32,000 nt of DNA from positions 39,013 to 71,012 of the forward strand of contig CAZXEQ010000006.1 of NCBI GenBank assembly GCA_964640155.1. The letters run 5' to 3'. The DNA is from an uncultured bacterium (lineage in GTDB: Bacteria; Auribacterota; JACPWU01). How positions within the stretch are numbered: the first letter of the stretch is position 1; each line of letters begins with the position of its first letter. Shown here in pieces: positions 20,599-25,347 of the stretch. The notes beneath the pieces are model-generated. The model was given only the letters and a program-made list of their open reading frames with translations, was not told the DNA's origin and searched no databases. A program made the translations under genes and the position numbers.

Positions 20599-21072
20599 GT
20601 GGCGTCTCAAAAATATTGGCTTATGAAAAGCGAAGCTCTTGATTATTCAATCGATGATTTTGCAAAAGATAAGCGTAGTGACTGGCATGGTGTACGGAAT
20701 TATCAAGCACGAAACTTTATGCGCGATGAGATGAAAGTAGGAGATCTCATTCTTTTTTATCATTCCAATGCTAATCCATCAGGAATTGCAGGTCTTGGAG
20801 AAGTAATTCGAACGGGTTATCCGGATTTTACACAGTTTGATTCTAAGAGCGAATATTACGACAAAAAAGCGACCAAAGAAAAACCTATTTGGTATATGGT
20901 AGATATTCAATTCAAAGAAAAATTCCCTCACTTTATTTCTTTAGAAGAATTAAAGAGAAATAAAACCCTTCAAAATATGCTCTTGATTCGTCACGGAAGA
21001 CTTTCAGTACAACCTGTAGAAGAAGAACATTTTAAGATTATTCAGAAAATAGGATATACTTATACGAATTAA
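20599..21072 (+). CDS. EVE (PUA-like) domain protein
   Basis: GTG start preceded by AGGAGG. Motifs YWLMKSE, W.GVRNYQARNFMRDEMKVGD and ILFYHSN. Confidence 0.85.
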   Translation: MASQKYWLMKSEALDYSIDDFAKDKRSDWHGVRNYQARNFMRDEMKVGDLILFYHSNANPSGIAGLGEVIRTGYPDFTQFDSKSEYYDKKATKEKPIWYMVDIQFKEKFPHFISLEELKRNKTLQNMLLIRHGRLSVQPVEEEHFKIIQKIGYTYTN

Positions 21073-21087
21073 AAAATTTTTATTTCA

Positions 21088-21117
21088 TCAAATACTCTTT
21101 CTAAAAAGAGTATTTGA
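21088..21117 (+). terminator. perfect 13-bp hairpin downstream of the EVE gene (probable terminator or RNA-stability element)
   Basis: TCAAATACTCTTT-CTAA-AAAGAGTATTTGA, starting 16 nt after the stop codon. No clear T-tract on the plus strand, so the terminator call is tentative. Confidence 0.5.
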
Positions 21118-21166
21118 TCATAGCAAAAAATAATTCTATACTTTTTTATCTAACGGAGGGTTTTGA

Positions 21167-21325
21167 ATGAATACTTCTAACATTTTAAATTCCAATCAAT
21201 TGATTTTAATTTCCAAAGAAGAGAAGAAGTTGTGGCAAAAGCCTAGTATTCTTGTACTGTCCCTTAATGATACAGAAGGAGGGATTATTCATTCTCCTCC
21301 AGAAGATGTAACGTTTTCCAGTTAG
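21167..21325 (+). CDS. small ORF (52 aa) resembling a lasso-peptide/RiPP precursor
   Basis: Too short for the supplied ORF track. SD GGAGGG lies 6 nt upstream of the ATG. Translation: MNTSNILNSNQLILISKEEKKLWQKPSILVLSLNDTEGGIIHSPPEDVTFSS. See findings. Confidence 0.5.
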   Translation: MNTSNILNSNQLILISKEEKKLWQKPSILVLSLNDTEGGIIHSPPEDVTFSS

Positions 21326-21370: not shown

Positions 21371-21769
21371 TCAGCACGAATGCAAAGCAATACGATTCCC
21401 TTCGCTATCCAAAACAACGGCTCTAAAACCATAGGGGGCAATAGAATGTTTTTCTTGAAGAATTTTTCCACCATTTGCCTTAGCTGCTTTAATTGCATCA
21501 TCCAGTCTTCCATTTGTATTTAAATAAATTAAAACACCTTGTCCAGAAGGAACGTTTCCCTCAGTTTTTACTAAGCATGCACCTATTCCTTCCCCGGCAT
21601 GAGGAAGAACTCCTATGGCAAAATCAGGCATTTCTTCTTTTATTATTTTTGCTCCAATGACTGCAGAATAAAATCGAATGGCTCGATCTAAATCAACCAC
21701 TGGAATATCACACCAAACAATTTGATTAATAGAGCATTCTTTTTCGGATTTCAATTCAGTGTCTTTCAT
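21371..21769 (-). CDS. VOC (glyoxalase/bleomycin-resistance/dioxygenase) family protein
   Basis: 132 aa. The N-terminal W.DIPV.DLDRAIRFY motif and the overall pattern are typical of small VOC proteins. Confidence 0.8.
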   Translation of the reverse strand: MKDTELKSEKECSINQIVWCDIPVVDLDRAIRFYSAVIGAKIIKEEMPDFAIGVLPHAGEGIGACLVKTEGNVPSGQGVLIYLNTNGRLDDAIKAAKANGGKILQEKHSIAPYGFRAVVLDSEGNRIALHSC

Positions 21770-21814
21770 AAAATTTCTCCTAATTTATTTTTTAAAATTG
21801 ACGGCTAAGATCTA

Positions 21815-22264
21815 TTAGCTGATTTTAGATTTTAATTCGACGATAGCAATAATTTCTTCTTTTCCTAAGACATTCTCATAATGATATTCATCTTTATTAC
21901 GTTCTAATTTCTTTTGAGTTGATAAATCAATTTTTAAGAGAACTAAATAGGAATGTCCTTCTATCAAATACTTAGGAATATGCTTTTTAGCAGAAATTTC
22001 ACTTTCAATTCCAATATAATTACGCGTCATTTTTCCTTTATAAATATTTTCAATCTTAAATCCCTCCAACAAAAACCATGTTCTGCTTCCATCAGGTCTA
22101 AAAATACAGGGGCTTCTTCCTTCAGTATAAGTACCTGAGAAAATGATATTGGCTTGCTTAATTAAATTTCTAGGTGCTTTAGAAATTTCAGCAGGCATTT
22201 GAGAATTAGCAAAAAGAGGATTCACTATAAGCATAAAAAACACAAAAACATATATATTACGCAT
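21815..22264 (-). CDS. small secreted protein, paralog A
   Basis: The tracked ORF (21815-22405) is a chimera. By comparison with paralog B, the likely start is ATG 22264 (MRNIYVFVFFMLIVNPLFA signal peptide). ATG 22279 is an alternative. Confidence 0.65.
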   Translation of the reverse strand: MRNIYVFVFFMLIVNPLFANSQMPAEISKAPRNLIKQANIIFSGTYTEGRSPCIFRPDGSRTWFLLEGFKIENIYKGKMTRNYIGIESEISAKKHIPKYLIEGHSYLVLLKIDLSTQKKLERNKDEYHYENVLGKEEIIAIVELKSKIS

Positions 22265-22294
22265 GATGTTGCCTAACATGAAAAGAGTAAAAAT

Positions 22295-22308
22295 TGGAGG
22301 TGGCGGGA
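22295..22308 (-). repeat. copy 3 of the tmRNA T-loop-to-3'-end 14-mer (att-like)
   Basis: TGGAGGTGGCGGGA on the plus strand, identical to 23218-23231 and 22971-22984. Confidence 0.85.
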
Positions 22309-22405
22309 ATCGAATCGCTCGATCTAAATCAAGCACTGGAATATCACACCAAACAATTTGATTAATAGAGCATTCTTTTTCGGATTTCAATTCAGTGTCT
22401 TTCAT
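22308..22405 (-). pseudogene. duplicated 5' fragment (about 33 codons) of the VOC gene
   Basis: MKDTELKSEKECSINQIVWCDIPVLDLDRAIRF matches the N-terminus of 21371-21769 apart from one residue. The fragment then runs into the tmRNA-derived 14-mer. Confidence 0.85.
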
Positions 22406-22450
22406 AAAATTTCTCCTAATTTATTTTTTAAAATTGACGGCTAAGATCTA

Positions 22451-22903
22451 TTAGCTGATTTTAGATTTTAATTCGACGATAGCAATAATTTCTTCTTTTC
22501 CTAAGACATTCTCATAATGATATTCATCTTTATTACGTTCTAATTTCTTTTGAGTTGATAAATCAATTTTTAAGAGAACTAAATAGGAATGTCCTTCCAC
22601 CAAATACTTAGGAATATGCTTTTTAGCAAAAATTTCACTCTCAATTCCAATATAATTACGCTTTATTTTTCCTTTATAAATATTTTCAACCTTAAATCCC
22701 TTCAACAAAAACCATGCTCTGGTTCCATCAGGTCTAAAAACACAAGGGCTCCTTCCTTCAGTATAAATACCAGAAAAAATAACATTGGCTGACTTTACTA
22801 AATTCTTAGGAAGACTAGAGAATTCAGGAGGTAATTTATCTGAAGCTACAAGAGATTGGAAAATAAACATAAAAAAGATAAAAGCTGATAAAACATTTTT
22901 CAT
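22451..22903 (-). CDS. small secreted protein, paralog B
   Basis: 150 aa with signal peptide MKNVLSAFIFFMFIFQSLVA. The C-terminal 49 residues and the downstream DNA are identical to paralog A. Confidence 0.75.
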   Translation of the reverse strand: MKNVLSAFIFFMFIFQSLVASDKLPPEFSSLPKNLVKSANVIFSGIYTEGRSPCVFRPDGTRAWFLLKGFKVENIYKGKIKRNYIGIESEIFAKKHIPKYLVEGHSYLVLLKIDLSTQKKLERNKDEYHYENVLGKEEIIAIVELKSKIS

Positions 22904-22970
22904 AATTCTATTTTAGGATGCTCTTCATGACTTTTTAAACAGCAGTTCCTTCACATAAAAATAAAAGAAT

Positions 22971-22984
22971 TGGAGGTGGCGGGA
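22971..22984 (-). repeat. copy 2 of the tmRNA T-loop-to-3'-end 14-mer (att-like)
   Basis: TGGAGGTGGCGGGA on the plus strand. Together with the genuine tmRNA 3' end, it bounds element X. Confidence 0.85.
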
Positions 22985-23217
22985 TCGGCGCCTACGTTTC
23001 AGGCTAGCCGCTCTGCGGCATGGCCTCTTCGAGGCCTACGCATCCACTTCGGTCGGCCATTCGATGTTCGCAGCGGTCGTCCATCTACCACCGGTAGATG
23101 GTCATTATATATTCTGACTTCGTCAGATAACTCACGTCTCCCTTCGACTCCTGCACATTTGCAAAGGCCTATATTGTGCTGAAGTTTCTGGACCCTAGAT
23201 TTATCTTGGAATAACAA
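22985..23217 (-). mobile_element. element X: 233-nt GC-rich, hairpin-dense insert immediately 3' of tmRNA (miniature integrative-element remnant or unknown structured RNA)
   Basis: Flanked by 14-nt direct repeats. Hairpins at 23022-23036 (GGCCTC-TTC-GAGGCC), 23081-23101 (CCATCTACC-ACC-GGTAGATGG) and 23114-23126 (CTGAC-TTC-GTCAG). Its composition contrasts with the AT-rich flanks. Confidence 0.45.
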
Positions 23218-23618
23218 TGGAGGTGGCGGGAGTCGAACCCGCGTCCTAGAGTATTTCTTACGAGAGCCTCTACATGCTTAGGCTATTTTTTGGATCTCAT
23301 CCTTTTAGACTCCAACAGTCAGGATTCTAAAAGGACCAGTCGGCATGCGGTCTCCTCGCCATGAATGCGCCCACTCCATTCATGACCAGCCTGTTATGAG
23401 TCGCCTATTCAAGCCTCACAGACATAAGCCTGATAGACGTGGCTGACTAAGCAGCCAATGCCAACGTTCGAGGAGCGAACGAACCAATGTTCAACTTCTC
23501 AAACGGGATTACTTTCCCTGTATTGGCAAATAAATGTGCCAGGTGTTTTGAGAGGCCTCCTAGCAACCTCTGCATGCCACCCTCGTGTCCACACCCCAGT
23601 CGAATCCATTTCACCCCC
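23218..23618 (-). ncRNA. ssrA: tmRNA (SsrA), one-piece, about 401 nt, CCA not encoded
   Basis: The minus strand starts GGGGGTGAAATGGATTCGACTGGGG and ends GGACGCGGGTTCGACTCCCGCCACCTCCA (T-arm plus acceptor). The 5' GGGGGUG pairs with CACCUCC. Tag frame 23527-23447: GCC AAU ... GCA UUG GCU GCU UAG. smpB lies 0.9 kb upstream. Confidence 0.93.
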
Positions 23619-23701: not shown

Positions 23702-24271
23702 TTAAGCTTTTGAAAGCAACCGATTAAAACTTTGAAGAAGTTTATCCCCTCCCACTTCATCAAGTTTTTTTAACCATTCTTGGATATAGGTAACGTCGAT
23801 TTTCTTTTTCTGACGCTGAATAATTCCTTTTAAATCCTCATAATCTTTTGCTCTGGTACTTGCAATCTTGTGAATAATTAAATCTTCAGGACTTATTAAT
23901 TTTATCTTTAAATTATCTATTTTCTTTATTCGACCTCTACGAATTGCAGAAAATTCAAGAGAGTTTTCTGCAATAATAACATCCAGCTTCCCCAAAATAT
24001 TTCCTTTTTGAAACTTCAGGGGAATAACACCCGTTTTTTTTACAATCTTCATCGTTTCTTTAAAAGAAGGAGAAAAACCAAATTTTTTAATCTTCTTTAA
24101 AAAATCTTCTGCCTTTGCTTTATCCAAAACGACGTTAATATCAACGTCTAAAGTCATGCGAGGCTCTCCATAAATTGAAACAGCTATTCCGCCTATAATC
24201 ACATAAGGAATTTTTTCAGAAGAGAGAAATCGAGTAAGAGATTGAATCAAAGATTCAAATTGAAGACTCAT
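23702..24271 (-). CDS. minimal nucleotidyltransferase-fold protein (toxin-antitoxin-like cassette component)
   Basis: 189 aa. NTase signature IIGGIAVSIYGEPRMTLDVDINV (hGG...DxD). ATGA overlap with the upstream 72-aa ORF. Confidence 0.7.
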   Translation of the reverse strand: MSLQFESLIQSLTRFLSSEKIPYVIIGGIAVSIYGEPRMTLDVDINVVLDKAKAEDFLKKIKKFGFSPSFKETMKIVKKTGVIPLKFQKGNILGKLDVIIAENSLEFSAIRRGRIKKIDNLKIKLISPEDLIIHKIASTRAKDYEDLKGIIQRQKKKIDVTYIQEWLKKLDEVGGDKLLQSFNRLLSKA

Positions 24272-24486
24272 TTTATCCTTCCAAATAAAGTGTGAATTTT
24301 AGCCAAATGCTTAATCTTGGCTTCATCAAACTTTCTATTTTTAAAAACCCAGCCTGCACGACTTGCAAAATTATAAAGTTCCTTAAATGCTTTAAAACCA
24401 TCCTTCACAGATAAATTCTTTAAAAACTTGCGTTTCTGTTCATCTTCAAATTGATGATAAATTTCCCATTTTTTCTCTCTTAGCAT
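24268..24486 (-). CDS. small basic protein, partner of the nucleotidyltransferase
   Basis: 72 aa. Starts 1 nt after the smpB stop codon and overlaps the NTase start (ATGA). No motif recognised. Confidence 0.6.
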   Translation of the reverse strand: MLREKKWEIYHQFEDEQKRKFLKNLSVKDGFKAFKELYNFASRAGWVFKNRKFDEAKIKHLAKIHTLFGRIK

Positions 24487-24961: not shown

Positions 24962-25062
24962 TGAAAATCTCCTAGCAACGTAGTAGTACCGATCCTTAAA
25001 AAAATATTAATGCAAAGGTGCAAAAATGTTATTATATTTATCATACACGAAGTGGAGAAAAA

Positions 25063-25347
25063 ATGGCAGATACACCTATCACAACTCAAGCGCCTCCAAA
25101 AAGGCCAGCAAAACCAAAAGCATTTGTCGATAGAGACAATTGTACAGGATGTGAGATCTGTATACAATTTTGTCCTGTTGAACAATGCATCATCAAAATT
25201 CCAGAAGCCTCTGACTGGCAGCTTAATGGCTATGTCAAAGTTGTCGAAAATAAATGCATTGGTTGTCGTCTATGTGTTCGTGAATGCCCGTGGGATGCTA
25301 TTTCCATGATCATTCCTGGAACACAAGCTCCCGCAGCAACTGCTTAA
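25063..25347 (+). CDS. 2x[4Fe-4S] ferredoxin
   Basis: Motifs CTGCEICIQFCP and CIGCRLCVRECP. I prefer ATG 25063 (GGAG 7 nt upstream) over the tracked start at 25018. Confidence 0.8.
   Translation: MADTPITTQAPPKRPAKPKAFVDRDNCTGCEICIQFCPVEQCIIKIPEASDWQLNGYVKVVENKCIGCRLCVRECPWDAISMIIPGTQAPAATA

Follow-up and report, generated by a model that had tools for sequence, protein, structure and literature searches.

A solitary 52-codon gene of an uncultured bacterium that probably encodes a paeninodin-like lasso peptide precursor

We analysed a 32,000-nucleotide stretch of DNA from an uncultured bacterium (assembly GCA_964640155.1, contig CAZXEQ010000006.1, positions 39,013 to 71,012; hereafter the window) that contains a 52-codon open reading frame (ORF) at 21167..21325. 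An earlier inspection of the letters, hereafter the original prediction, had suggested that this ORF encodes a lasso peptide precursor. We find that the ORF is very probably a genuine member of a family of paeninodin-like precursors. The fuller statement, that it is an expressed paeninodin-like precursor matured in trans by enzymes from another locus, is one to which we give somewhat better than even odds; from our analysis, we infer the ring, the plug, the phosphorylation and the presence of the enzymes elsewhere in the genome. The unlinked position of the gene is its only unusual feature, as it otherwise is a member of a small subfamily that lies beyond the curated paeninodin model.

The features of the precursor gene are the following (positions are those of the window; residues are numbered backwards from the core in the leader and forwards in the core):

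21114..21142, + strand: promoter-like sequence TTGATC-17 nt-TATACT, ending 24 nt before the ATG (consensus scan; putative function)
21155..21160, + strand: Shine-Dalgarno (SD) sequence GGAGGG, 6 nt 5' of the ATG; AGGAGG in the orthologous locus L003
21167..21325, + strand: precursor ORF with the ATG start at 21167, 52 codons and a stop; product MNTSNILNSNQLILISKEEKKLWQKPSILVLSLNDTEGGIIHSPPEDVTFSS
21167..21277, + strand: leader, 37 codons, MNTSNILNSNQLILISKEEKKLWQKPSILVLSLNDTE
21233..21244, + strand: WQKP, the W-x-x-P recognition motif for a PqqD-like B1 protein, with Trp -15 and Pro -12; invariant in 12 of 12 family members
21272..21274, + strand: Thr -2 (Thr36), the penultimate leader residue and recognition element of the B2 leader peptidase; invariant in 12 of 12 family members
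21278..21322, + strand: predicted 15-residue core GGIIHSPPEDVTFSS, which starts at Gly38
21302..21304, + strand: Glu9, predicted macrolactam partner of Gly1 in a putative ring
21320..21322, + strand: C-terminal Ser, a likely kinase target; the peptide ends in FSS
21323..21325, + strand: TAG stop codon

The leader, the predicted binding partner of B1, reads W(-15)-Q-K-P(-12)-S-I(-10) with Thr at -2, and the core has Gly1, Glu9, Phe13 and a Ser-Ser end. The ORF and SD sequence that had been described are indeed present (ATG at 21167 to TAG at 21325, GGAGGG at 21155-21160), and the claimed leader spacing (Trp -15, Pro -12, Ile -10 and Thr -2 relative to Gly1) as well as the claimed core residues (Gly1, Glu9, Phe13 and the C-terminal Ser) can be read directly in the peptide. 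The tail beyond Glu9 comprises six residues (DVTFSS) including Phe13, which is the likely plug of the predicted lasso.

To place the peptide, we compared it with known families and with large protein collections. A Pfam search gave no match, and the sole NCBIfam match was lasso_PadeA_fam (NF033524) with 12.6 bits (E = 0.085), where the curated cut-off is 27 bits. The same family was the sole NCBIfam match for five of the 12 members described below, with a best E-value of 9e-4 and none above the cut-off. As the peptide scores under the cut-off, we assign it to a sister subfamily and not to the curated family itself. A word-indexed search of 5.8 billion proteins returned a single relative, P0002 from a Logan assembly, which is 79% identical. 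Exhaustive HMMER searches of 1.84 billion cluster representatives added two distant peptides, P0003 (E = 4e-4) and P0004 (E = 7e-4). Protein homology searches found only two proteins with the peptide alone and four with a four-sequence alignment. Scans with peptide alignments gave no match in genome contigs, in two metagenome-contig scans and in one viral-contig scan. Small ORFs are badly under-called, and further members of the family were reached only by walking from B2 homologs.

The starting point of this walk was the locus of P0003. There, the start of the peptide gene lies within the stop codon of a Transglut_core3 gene. The latter scores above the NCBIfam cut-off for lasso_biosyn_B2 and is preceded by a PqqD gene, for which lasso_PqqD_Bac is the best match. 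A search with the concatenated B1 and B2 proteins of this locus returned 11 B2 homologs, one of which is named by NCBI as 'lasso peptide biosynthesis B2 protein [Bacteroidales bacterium]' (GCA_032250755.1). Eight loci of B2 homologs were looked up, and each contains a 40-45-codon ORF that overlaps the B2 stop, except for L093, where an uncalled ORF lies about 30 nt past the B2 stop. Together, HMMER and the context look-ups yielded 11 relatives: one unlinked ortholog (P0002) and ten cluster-linked peptides of 40-45 aa from uncultured Bacteroidota-type organisms (loci L084-L093). The cluster-linked peptides are 31-50% identical to the window peptide and have cores of 15-19 residues; the closest is that of L088, with KKAWEKPKVLVLSVKETN before and GGTIIGTPENTTFGS after the start of the core. 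Their genes start in or right after the B2 stop codon and lack an SD sequence.

The three longest contigs (L086, L087 and L088) show the full cluster, which is ordered as ATP-binding cassette (ABC) transporter, two unknown genes, NTP_transf_5, Asn_synthase, HprK-like kinase, sulfotransferase, B1, B2 and precursor. The best NCBIfam match of the Asn_synthase protein is the lasso isopeptide cyclase (E = 1e-71). With a kinase for the C-terminal Ser and a nucleotidyltransferase, the clusters of the relatives are of the paeninodin/pseudomycoidin type. The original prediction had proposed to look for small homologous ORFs next to lasso genes in relatives, and such ORFs are found right behind B1/B2, in clusters with a cyclase and an HprK-like kinase. 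Its reading of the ORF as a paeninodin-type precursor, which had been based on motif spacing, is now backed by homology to cluster-encoded peptides.

Two further features of these clusters were observed. Every long relative cluster contains a Sulfotransfer_1 gene between the HprK-like kinase and B1, which suggests a sulfation step besides phosphorylation in this subfamily. In addition, a large secreted protein of the SBBP, SprB or Por_Secre_tail type, associated with the type IX secretion system (T9SS), is encoded directly 3' of the precursor in L084-L086, L088 and L091. More precisely, no gene separates the precursor from the SprB/Por_Secre_tail protein in L086 and L088, and two small ORFs lie between them in L087; in L089, L090 and L092, a long uncharacterised ORF that is cut by the contig end lies 3' of the precursor. 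For L084 and L085, whose T9SS-type proteins were compared, orthology extends from the signal peptide onwards (34% identity). Precursor and T9SS-type protein may be paired for a functional reason or simply through common descent. The window contains no T9SS/SBBP-type gene, and its 924-aa ORF is unrelated to the SBBP protein. The coordinates of these genes are:

Sulfotransfer_1 genes: L086 8649-9506; L087 8771-9628; L088 7821-8678; L091 1313-2188
Large secreted/T9SS-type protein genes: L084 1036-1857; L085 200-2773; L086 10531-13182; L087 11717-13402; L088 9644-12040; L091 3166-5556

We next asked how specific the match between the window ORF and the cluster-linked peptides is. We searched 919 six-frame segments of the window with a profile that was built from seven cluster-linked peptides, excluding the window; the ORF reached 52.6 bits (E = 1e-15) and the runner-up frame 9.2 bits. 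The strict motif W.KP.{9}T.GG.{6}[ED] occurs in no unrelated frame across 1.27 Mb of examined loci. Furthermore, gene callers called the precursor ORF in three independent assemblies.

The alignment of all 12 members (window peptide, P0002 and the ten cluster-linked peptides) reveals a common signature. Lys -17, Trp -15, Lys -13, Pro -12, Thr -2 and Gly1-Gly2 are invariant, and Ser is the C-terminal residue throughout (12/12). Glu9 is present in 11 of the 12 members; the exception is L092, which has Glu8. An aromatic residue lies 2-4 positions past the Glu, again in 11 of 12. In the L092 peptide (570-698, MEKKREKVKRKVWEKPLIKKYSLLHTKGGDGLETEVFTYGVS), core residues 6 and 8 are Glu but residue 9 is not, so that ring size may vary within the family.

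These residues correspond to those described for lasso peptides. Trp -15 within WxxP is nearly invariant and a hallmark of paeninodin-like leaders, and the motif bound by the RiPP (ribosomally synthesised and post-translationally modified peptide) recognition element (RRE) has been defined as [W/Y]xxPx[L/V/I/F/A] (PMC13381572). Recognition of the penultimate leader Thr by the leader peptidase is described in PMC10368454, and the rule also appears in PMC4289311, where HPr kinase and sulfotransferase genes are noted in lasso clusters. The C-terminal Ser is a conserved kinase target (PMC9266682). The window peptide combines the leader motif, the penultimate Thr, Gly1 with an acidic residue at positions 7-9 and the C-terminal Ser. 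Two more elements of the original prediction stand: the match to the recognition motif, with W-15xxP-12 in place, and the likeness of the C-terminal Ser to that of the phosphorylated class.

The same signature bears on two other ways in which the peptide could be processed. First, it might belong to another RRE-dependent RiPP class, for which the best candidate is the precursors of linear polyphosphorylated peptides (LPP), which would be cut by a signal-peptidase-like enzyme and stay linear. The RRE-binding motif, the HprK-like kinase and the NTP-transferase are common to LPP and paeninodin-type clusters (PMC13381572), and no cyclase is encoded near the window ORF. However, the window sequence WQKPSILVLSLNDTEGG lacks the Tyr, HQ and FET of the LPP consensus YxxPxVLxHQxIxFETxxS, Trp -15 discriminates for lasso RREs (PMC13381572), and Thr -2, Gly1 and Glu9 are lasso features. 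Moreover, the genes of the relatives occur next to those for B2 and an Asn-synthase cyclase, in clusters for which no signal-peptidase family is listed. We thus consider an LPP precursor very unlikely.

Second, the invariant Gly-Gly after a partly hydrophobic stretch, together with the ABC transporters in the clusters of the relatives, could point to a double-glycine leader as in class II bacteriocins or signalling peptides, in which case a C39-peptidase ABC exporter would cut after GG and free the 13-mer IIHSPPEDVTFSS. This class expects hydrophobic residues at -4 and -7 to the cleavage site, whereas the residue at -4 is the invariant Thr. Peptidase_C39 is not among the domains listed for the window or for the transporters of the relatives, and such a cleavage would explain neither the nine-residue spacing between the first Gly and the conserved Glu nor why the relatives lie next to B1, B2 and cyclase (C). 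We therefore consider this explanation very unlikely as well.

The ortholog P0002 allowed us to estimate selection on the gene. It is encoded at locus L003 of a related organism, directly after an EVE gene and before a glyoxalase gene. The two sequences differ by 12.5 synonymous and 13.5 non-synonymous changes over 33 and 123 sites, respectively, which corresponds to rates of dS = 0.53 and dN = 0.12 and to a dN/dS of 0.22. For codons 18-52, dN/dS is 0.15, and for the neighbouring EVE gene of the same pair we obtained a dS of 0.54 and a dN/dS of 0.04. For the excess of synonymous changes, the binomial p is ~0.001-0.004. Within codons 18-26 (EEKKLWQKP), all four changes are synonymous; the core is identical at 14 of 15 residues, and none of the 11 amino-acid changes falls on the 12 residues that the first four family members have in common (p = 0.038). 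By this measure, the precursor gene is under purifying selection, and the pattern speaks for a translated, constrained gene. Both unlinked copies (window and L003) have their own SD sequence and an N-terminal extension of 10-11 residues, which for the window leader is seen in the alignment as about 10-11 extra residues that are absent from the cluster-linked relatives. The -10 hexamer of the promoter-like site is kept as TATAAT when the orthologous loci are aligned.

These results also bear on the simplest objection, namely that the ORF is an untranslated product of chance in an intergenic spacer. It is short, the spacer is AT-rich and Pfam gives no match; furthermore, the number of promoter-like sites around the ORF in the consensus scan is not above that in shuffled sequence, so that the promoter-like site is weak evidence when taken alone. 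Against this stand the profile match (E = 1e-15), the dN/dS of 0.22 in the ortholog pair, the strong and conserved SD sequence and the calls in three assemblies, and we regard a chance ORF as extremely improbable.

Although the peptide itself resembles a lasso precursor, the window contains no genes for its maturation. Among the 34 larger ORFs of the window, Pfam detected no Asn_synthase, Transglut_core3, PqqD, HprK, sulfotransferase or transporter domain, and tblastn with the B1, B2 and SBBP proteins of a related cluster found no remnant in the window. The original prediction had called the precursor an orphan within this stretch, and both the Pfam search and the tblastn search with B1 and B2 agree with that description.

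Several observations weigh against an expressed precursor that is matured in trans. No B1, B2, cyclase, kinase, exporter or remnant of these lies within 21 kb upstream or 10.7 kb downstream. All ten cluster-linked relatives with a visible junction overlap the B2 stop, or follow it by about 30 nt (L093), so that coupling to B2 looks like the normal state of the family. The window peptide stays under the NF033524 cut-off (12.6 versus 27 bits), the selection test is based on a single sequence pair, and a 6-residue tail behind a 9-residue ring is near the short end for a threaded fold. A weaker point is that the search with B1 and B2 gave only one NCBI-derived B2, which comes from a Bacteroidales metagenome-assembled genome (MAG) with 48.7% GC and hence from another organism, although NCBI also contains the genome of the window. 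The nine loci that were reached from B2 homologs include none from the samples of the window (SRR8893623, SRR8893624) or of the ortholog (SRR26835457), in a search that is insensitive: the same word-limited search returned no B1 although the B1 proteins are 69-88% identical, and its negative outcome is thus uninformative.

The Bacteroidales MAG with a full cluster was also considered as the window's own genome; this was ruled out by its GC content (48.7% vs 37.2%) and a tetranucleotide correlation of 0.43. The full clusters of the relatives have 44-51% GC, compared to 37.2% in the genome of the window.

From these observations, a different history of the gene could be drawn, in which the precursor is stranded: it would have been acquired alone or left behind after cluster loss, in a genome without lasso machinery, and would now be decaying or serve as an unmodified small protein. 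This would fit the finding that no maturation gene or remnant occurs within 32 kb although all cluster-linked members are physically coupled to B2, as well as the 10-11-residue N-terminal segment that the two unlinked copies have and cluster-linked leaders do not. It would also fit the search with B1 and B2, which returned no near B2 from the window's genome. Furthermore, the relatives are Bacteroidota-like, with T9SS and SprB neighbours, no SD sequences and the source name Bacteroidales, whereas the window organism uses SD sequences (an SD-like motif precedes about 15 of 35 window genes) and might belong to the Chlamydiota, which suggests horizontal transfer. However, a dN/dS of 0.22 at a dS of 0.53 argues against a decaying relic; the residues that are kept are those that B1, B2, cyclase and kinase need; the SD sequence and the -10 hexamer are kept in the ortholog; and the negative B1 and B2 search is unreliable. 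We therefore regard a stranded precursor as possible but doubtful.

A related proposal, in which a non-Bacteroidota host, perhaps an environmental Chlamydiota, keeps the lone precursor under purifying selection in a genome without B1, B2 and C, appears improbable to us. If it were true, the gene would have been transferred alone from Bacteroidota clusters, and the peptide would be matured by enzymes of another organism or by unrelated enzymes, or it would have a role as an unmodified small protein.

For the reading that we prefer, a precursor matured in trans, the family suggests the following pathway. As the gene is unlinked to B2 and has its own ribosome-binding site and promoter-like site, the enzymes would have to act in trans. 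A PqqD-like B1 would bind the leader at W(-15)-Q-K-P, and the leader would be cleaved off behind Thr(-2)-Glu(-1) by a B2 protease of the transglutaminase-like type. The ring would then be closed between the Gly1 amine and the Glu9 side chain by an Asn-synthase-like cyclase. For the resulting threaded 15-mer, cyclo(G1-E9)-GGIIHSPPEDVTFSS, the calculated monoisotopic mass is 1523.73 Da. An HprK-like kinase could phosphorylate the C-terminal Ser, for which the calculated mass is 1603.69 Da with one phosphate.

If the enzymes are encoded elsewhere in the genome, the gene would clearly exemplify maturation in trans among lasso peptides. If, on the other hand, the genome lacks lasso enzymes, a RiPP precursor that survives alone would represent an unexpected co-option of a gene. 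Lasso peptides are usually discovered through their enzymes, with the precursor then identified alongside. Mining that is centred on the enzymes would miss a precursor such as this one, which is kept by selection and lies tens of kb or more from any enzyme gene. The gene also adds a short 15-residue core to a little-described subfamily that is characterised by a Gly-Gly start, Glu9 and a C-terminal Ser together with kinase, sulfotransferase and NTP-transferase.

The genomic surroundings of the precursor gene include the following genes:

20599..21072, + strand: EVE-domain gene, 5' neighbour of the precursor ORF
21371..21769, - strand: glyoxalase-family gene, convergent 3' neighbour of the precursor ORF
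23618->23215, - strand: ssrA (transfer-messenger RNA, tmRNA)

Between the EVE gene and the promoter-like site, an AT-rich 11-bp inverted repeat (AAATACTCTTT ... AAAGAGTATTT) is present at 21087-21117. It is absent from L003, where the EVE gene reaches to 33 nt before the ATG of the peptide. A genome-contig scan with the EVE protein gave only matches of 52-60% identity from many phyla, and no synteny was seen. The original prediction had placed the ORF in an accessory zone next to insertions at ssrA. This holds only in part: about 1 kb separates the ORF from the outermost copy of the ssrA 3' end (22295), beyond which it lies, and its placement between EVE and glyoxalase genes is common to the related organism.

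Three copies of the tmRNA gene's 3' end (TGGAGGTGGCGGGAGTCGAACC) are present as direct repeats (22295-22316, 22970-22990 and 23218-23239). They look like traces left by one insertion after another at ssrA, although the window encodes no integrase. A 636-bp tandem duplication (21672-22307 and 22308-22943) is 99% identical in its first 300 nt and 85% identical over the whole unit. It creates a chimeric ORF (21815..22405) that joins the promoter/SD and first 33 residues of the glyoxalase gene, an ssrA-end copy ('RFPPPP') and, as its third part, a paralog of the lipoprotein-like ORF 22451..22903. In the Logan contig L002 from the sister sample, position 21671 is joined straight to 22308, and the duplication is thus either polymorphic or collapsed in the L002 assembly.

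A 248-bp segment (22970-23217) that separates the true 3' end of ssrA from the first repeat copy has 52% GC in a 37% GC genome. The segment looks structured, has no similarity to the tmRNA body, and in Rfam gave only a sub-threshold match to permuted tmRNA (20 bits, E = 0.22, with matches of E <= 1 considered). A permissive Rfam search around the precursor ORF and this GC-rich spacer found nothing beyond tmRNA. The tmRNA (23218-23618, - strand) encodes an unusually long 26-residue tag, ANTGKVIPFEKLNIGSFAPRTLALAA. Between ssrA and smpB, positions 23702-24486 (- strand) encode a DUF2204/DUF6036/AbiEii-like nucleotidyltransferase (189 aa) and an overlapping 72-aa ORF, a layout that resembles a type IV toxin-antitoxin or AbiE-like pair. 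Regarding the host, the 4Fe-4S ferredoxin (25018-25347, + strand) clusters with 'Chlamydiota bacterium' proteins (MBI1884098.1, 75% identity) and NuoB clusters with an Omnitrophota MAG protein, and most other window proteins are singletons at 90% identity. NCBIfam searches with the uncharacterised ORFs gave no lineage-specific match, so that the ferredoxin is the sole taxonomic hint. On this thin evidence, the host may be an environmental chlamydia, in which case horizontal transfer would probably have brought in the precursor gene.

Lastly, we compared the precursor to known systems. Among these is paeninodin PadeA with its family NF033524 (PadeA sequence from PMC11594732). The leader spacing is the same (aromatic residue at -15, Pro at -12, aliphatic residue at -10 and Thr at -2), PadeA likewise has a 9-residue ring on acidic residue 9, which for the window peptide is predicted, and a C-terminal Ser, and the clusters of the relatives share the split B1/B2, the Asn-synthase cyclase and the HprK-like kinase. 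In contrast to PadeA, the window core starts with Gly-Gly instead of Ala-Gly, would close on Glu instead of Asp, and has 15 instead of 23 residues; furthermore, the relatives occur in Bacteroidota-type loci with a sulfotransferase and not in Bacillota, and the window copy is unlinked. The window gene also differs from its own cluster-linked relatives, which have neither the N-terminal extension nor an SD sequence, whereas the window gene and L003 stand alone with their own SD sequence.

The HprK-like kinase and NTP_transf_5 in the clusters of the relatives recall pseudomycoidin from Bacillus pseudomycoides, in which the kinase PsmK and then the nucleotidyltransferase PsmN phosphorylate and then glycosylate the C-terminal Ser (PMC9266682). 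The window itself has neither kinase nor nucleotidyltransferase of this kind, and the likeness is one of cluster enzymes. With LPP (Popov et al. 2026, PMC13381572), the family shares the [Y/W]xxP motif and the HprK-like and NTP-transferase tailoring enzymes; however, LPP have Tyr leaders, a longer motif, a SipW-like peptidase and an uncyclised product, none of which fits the window peptide or the clusters of the relatives.

With respect to its isolated position, 'orphan precursors' have been counted in microbiome surveys (PMC11953309). Our literature search found no documented case of an unlinked precursor matured in trans for lasso peptides. Among other peptide classes, the precursors of prochlorosins are scattered around the genome and are modified by a single enzyme, ProcM. 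The proposed maturation of the window precursor in trans would be similar, as a precursor with a conserved leader would be served by distant enzymes.

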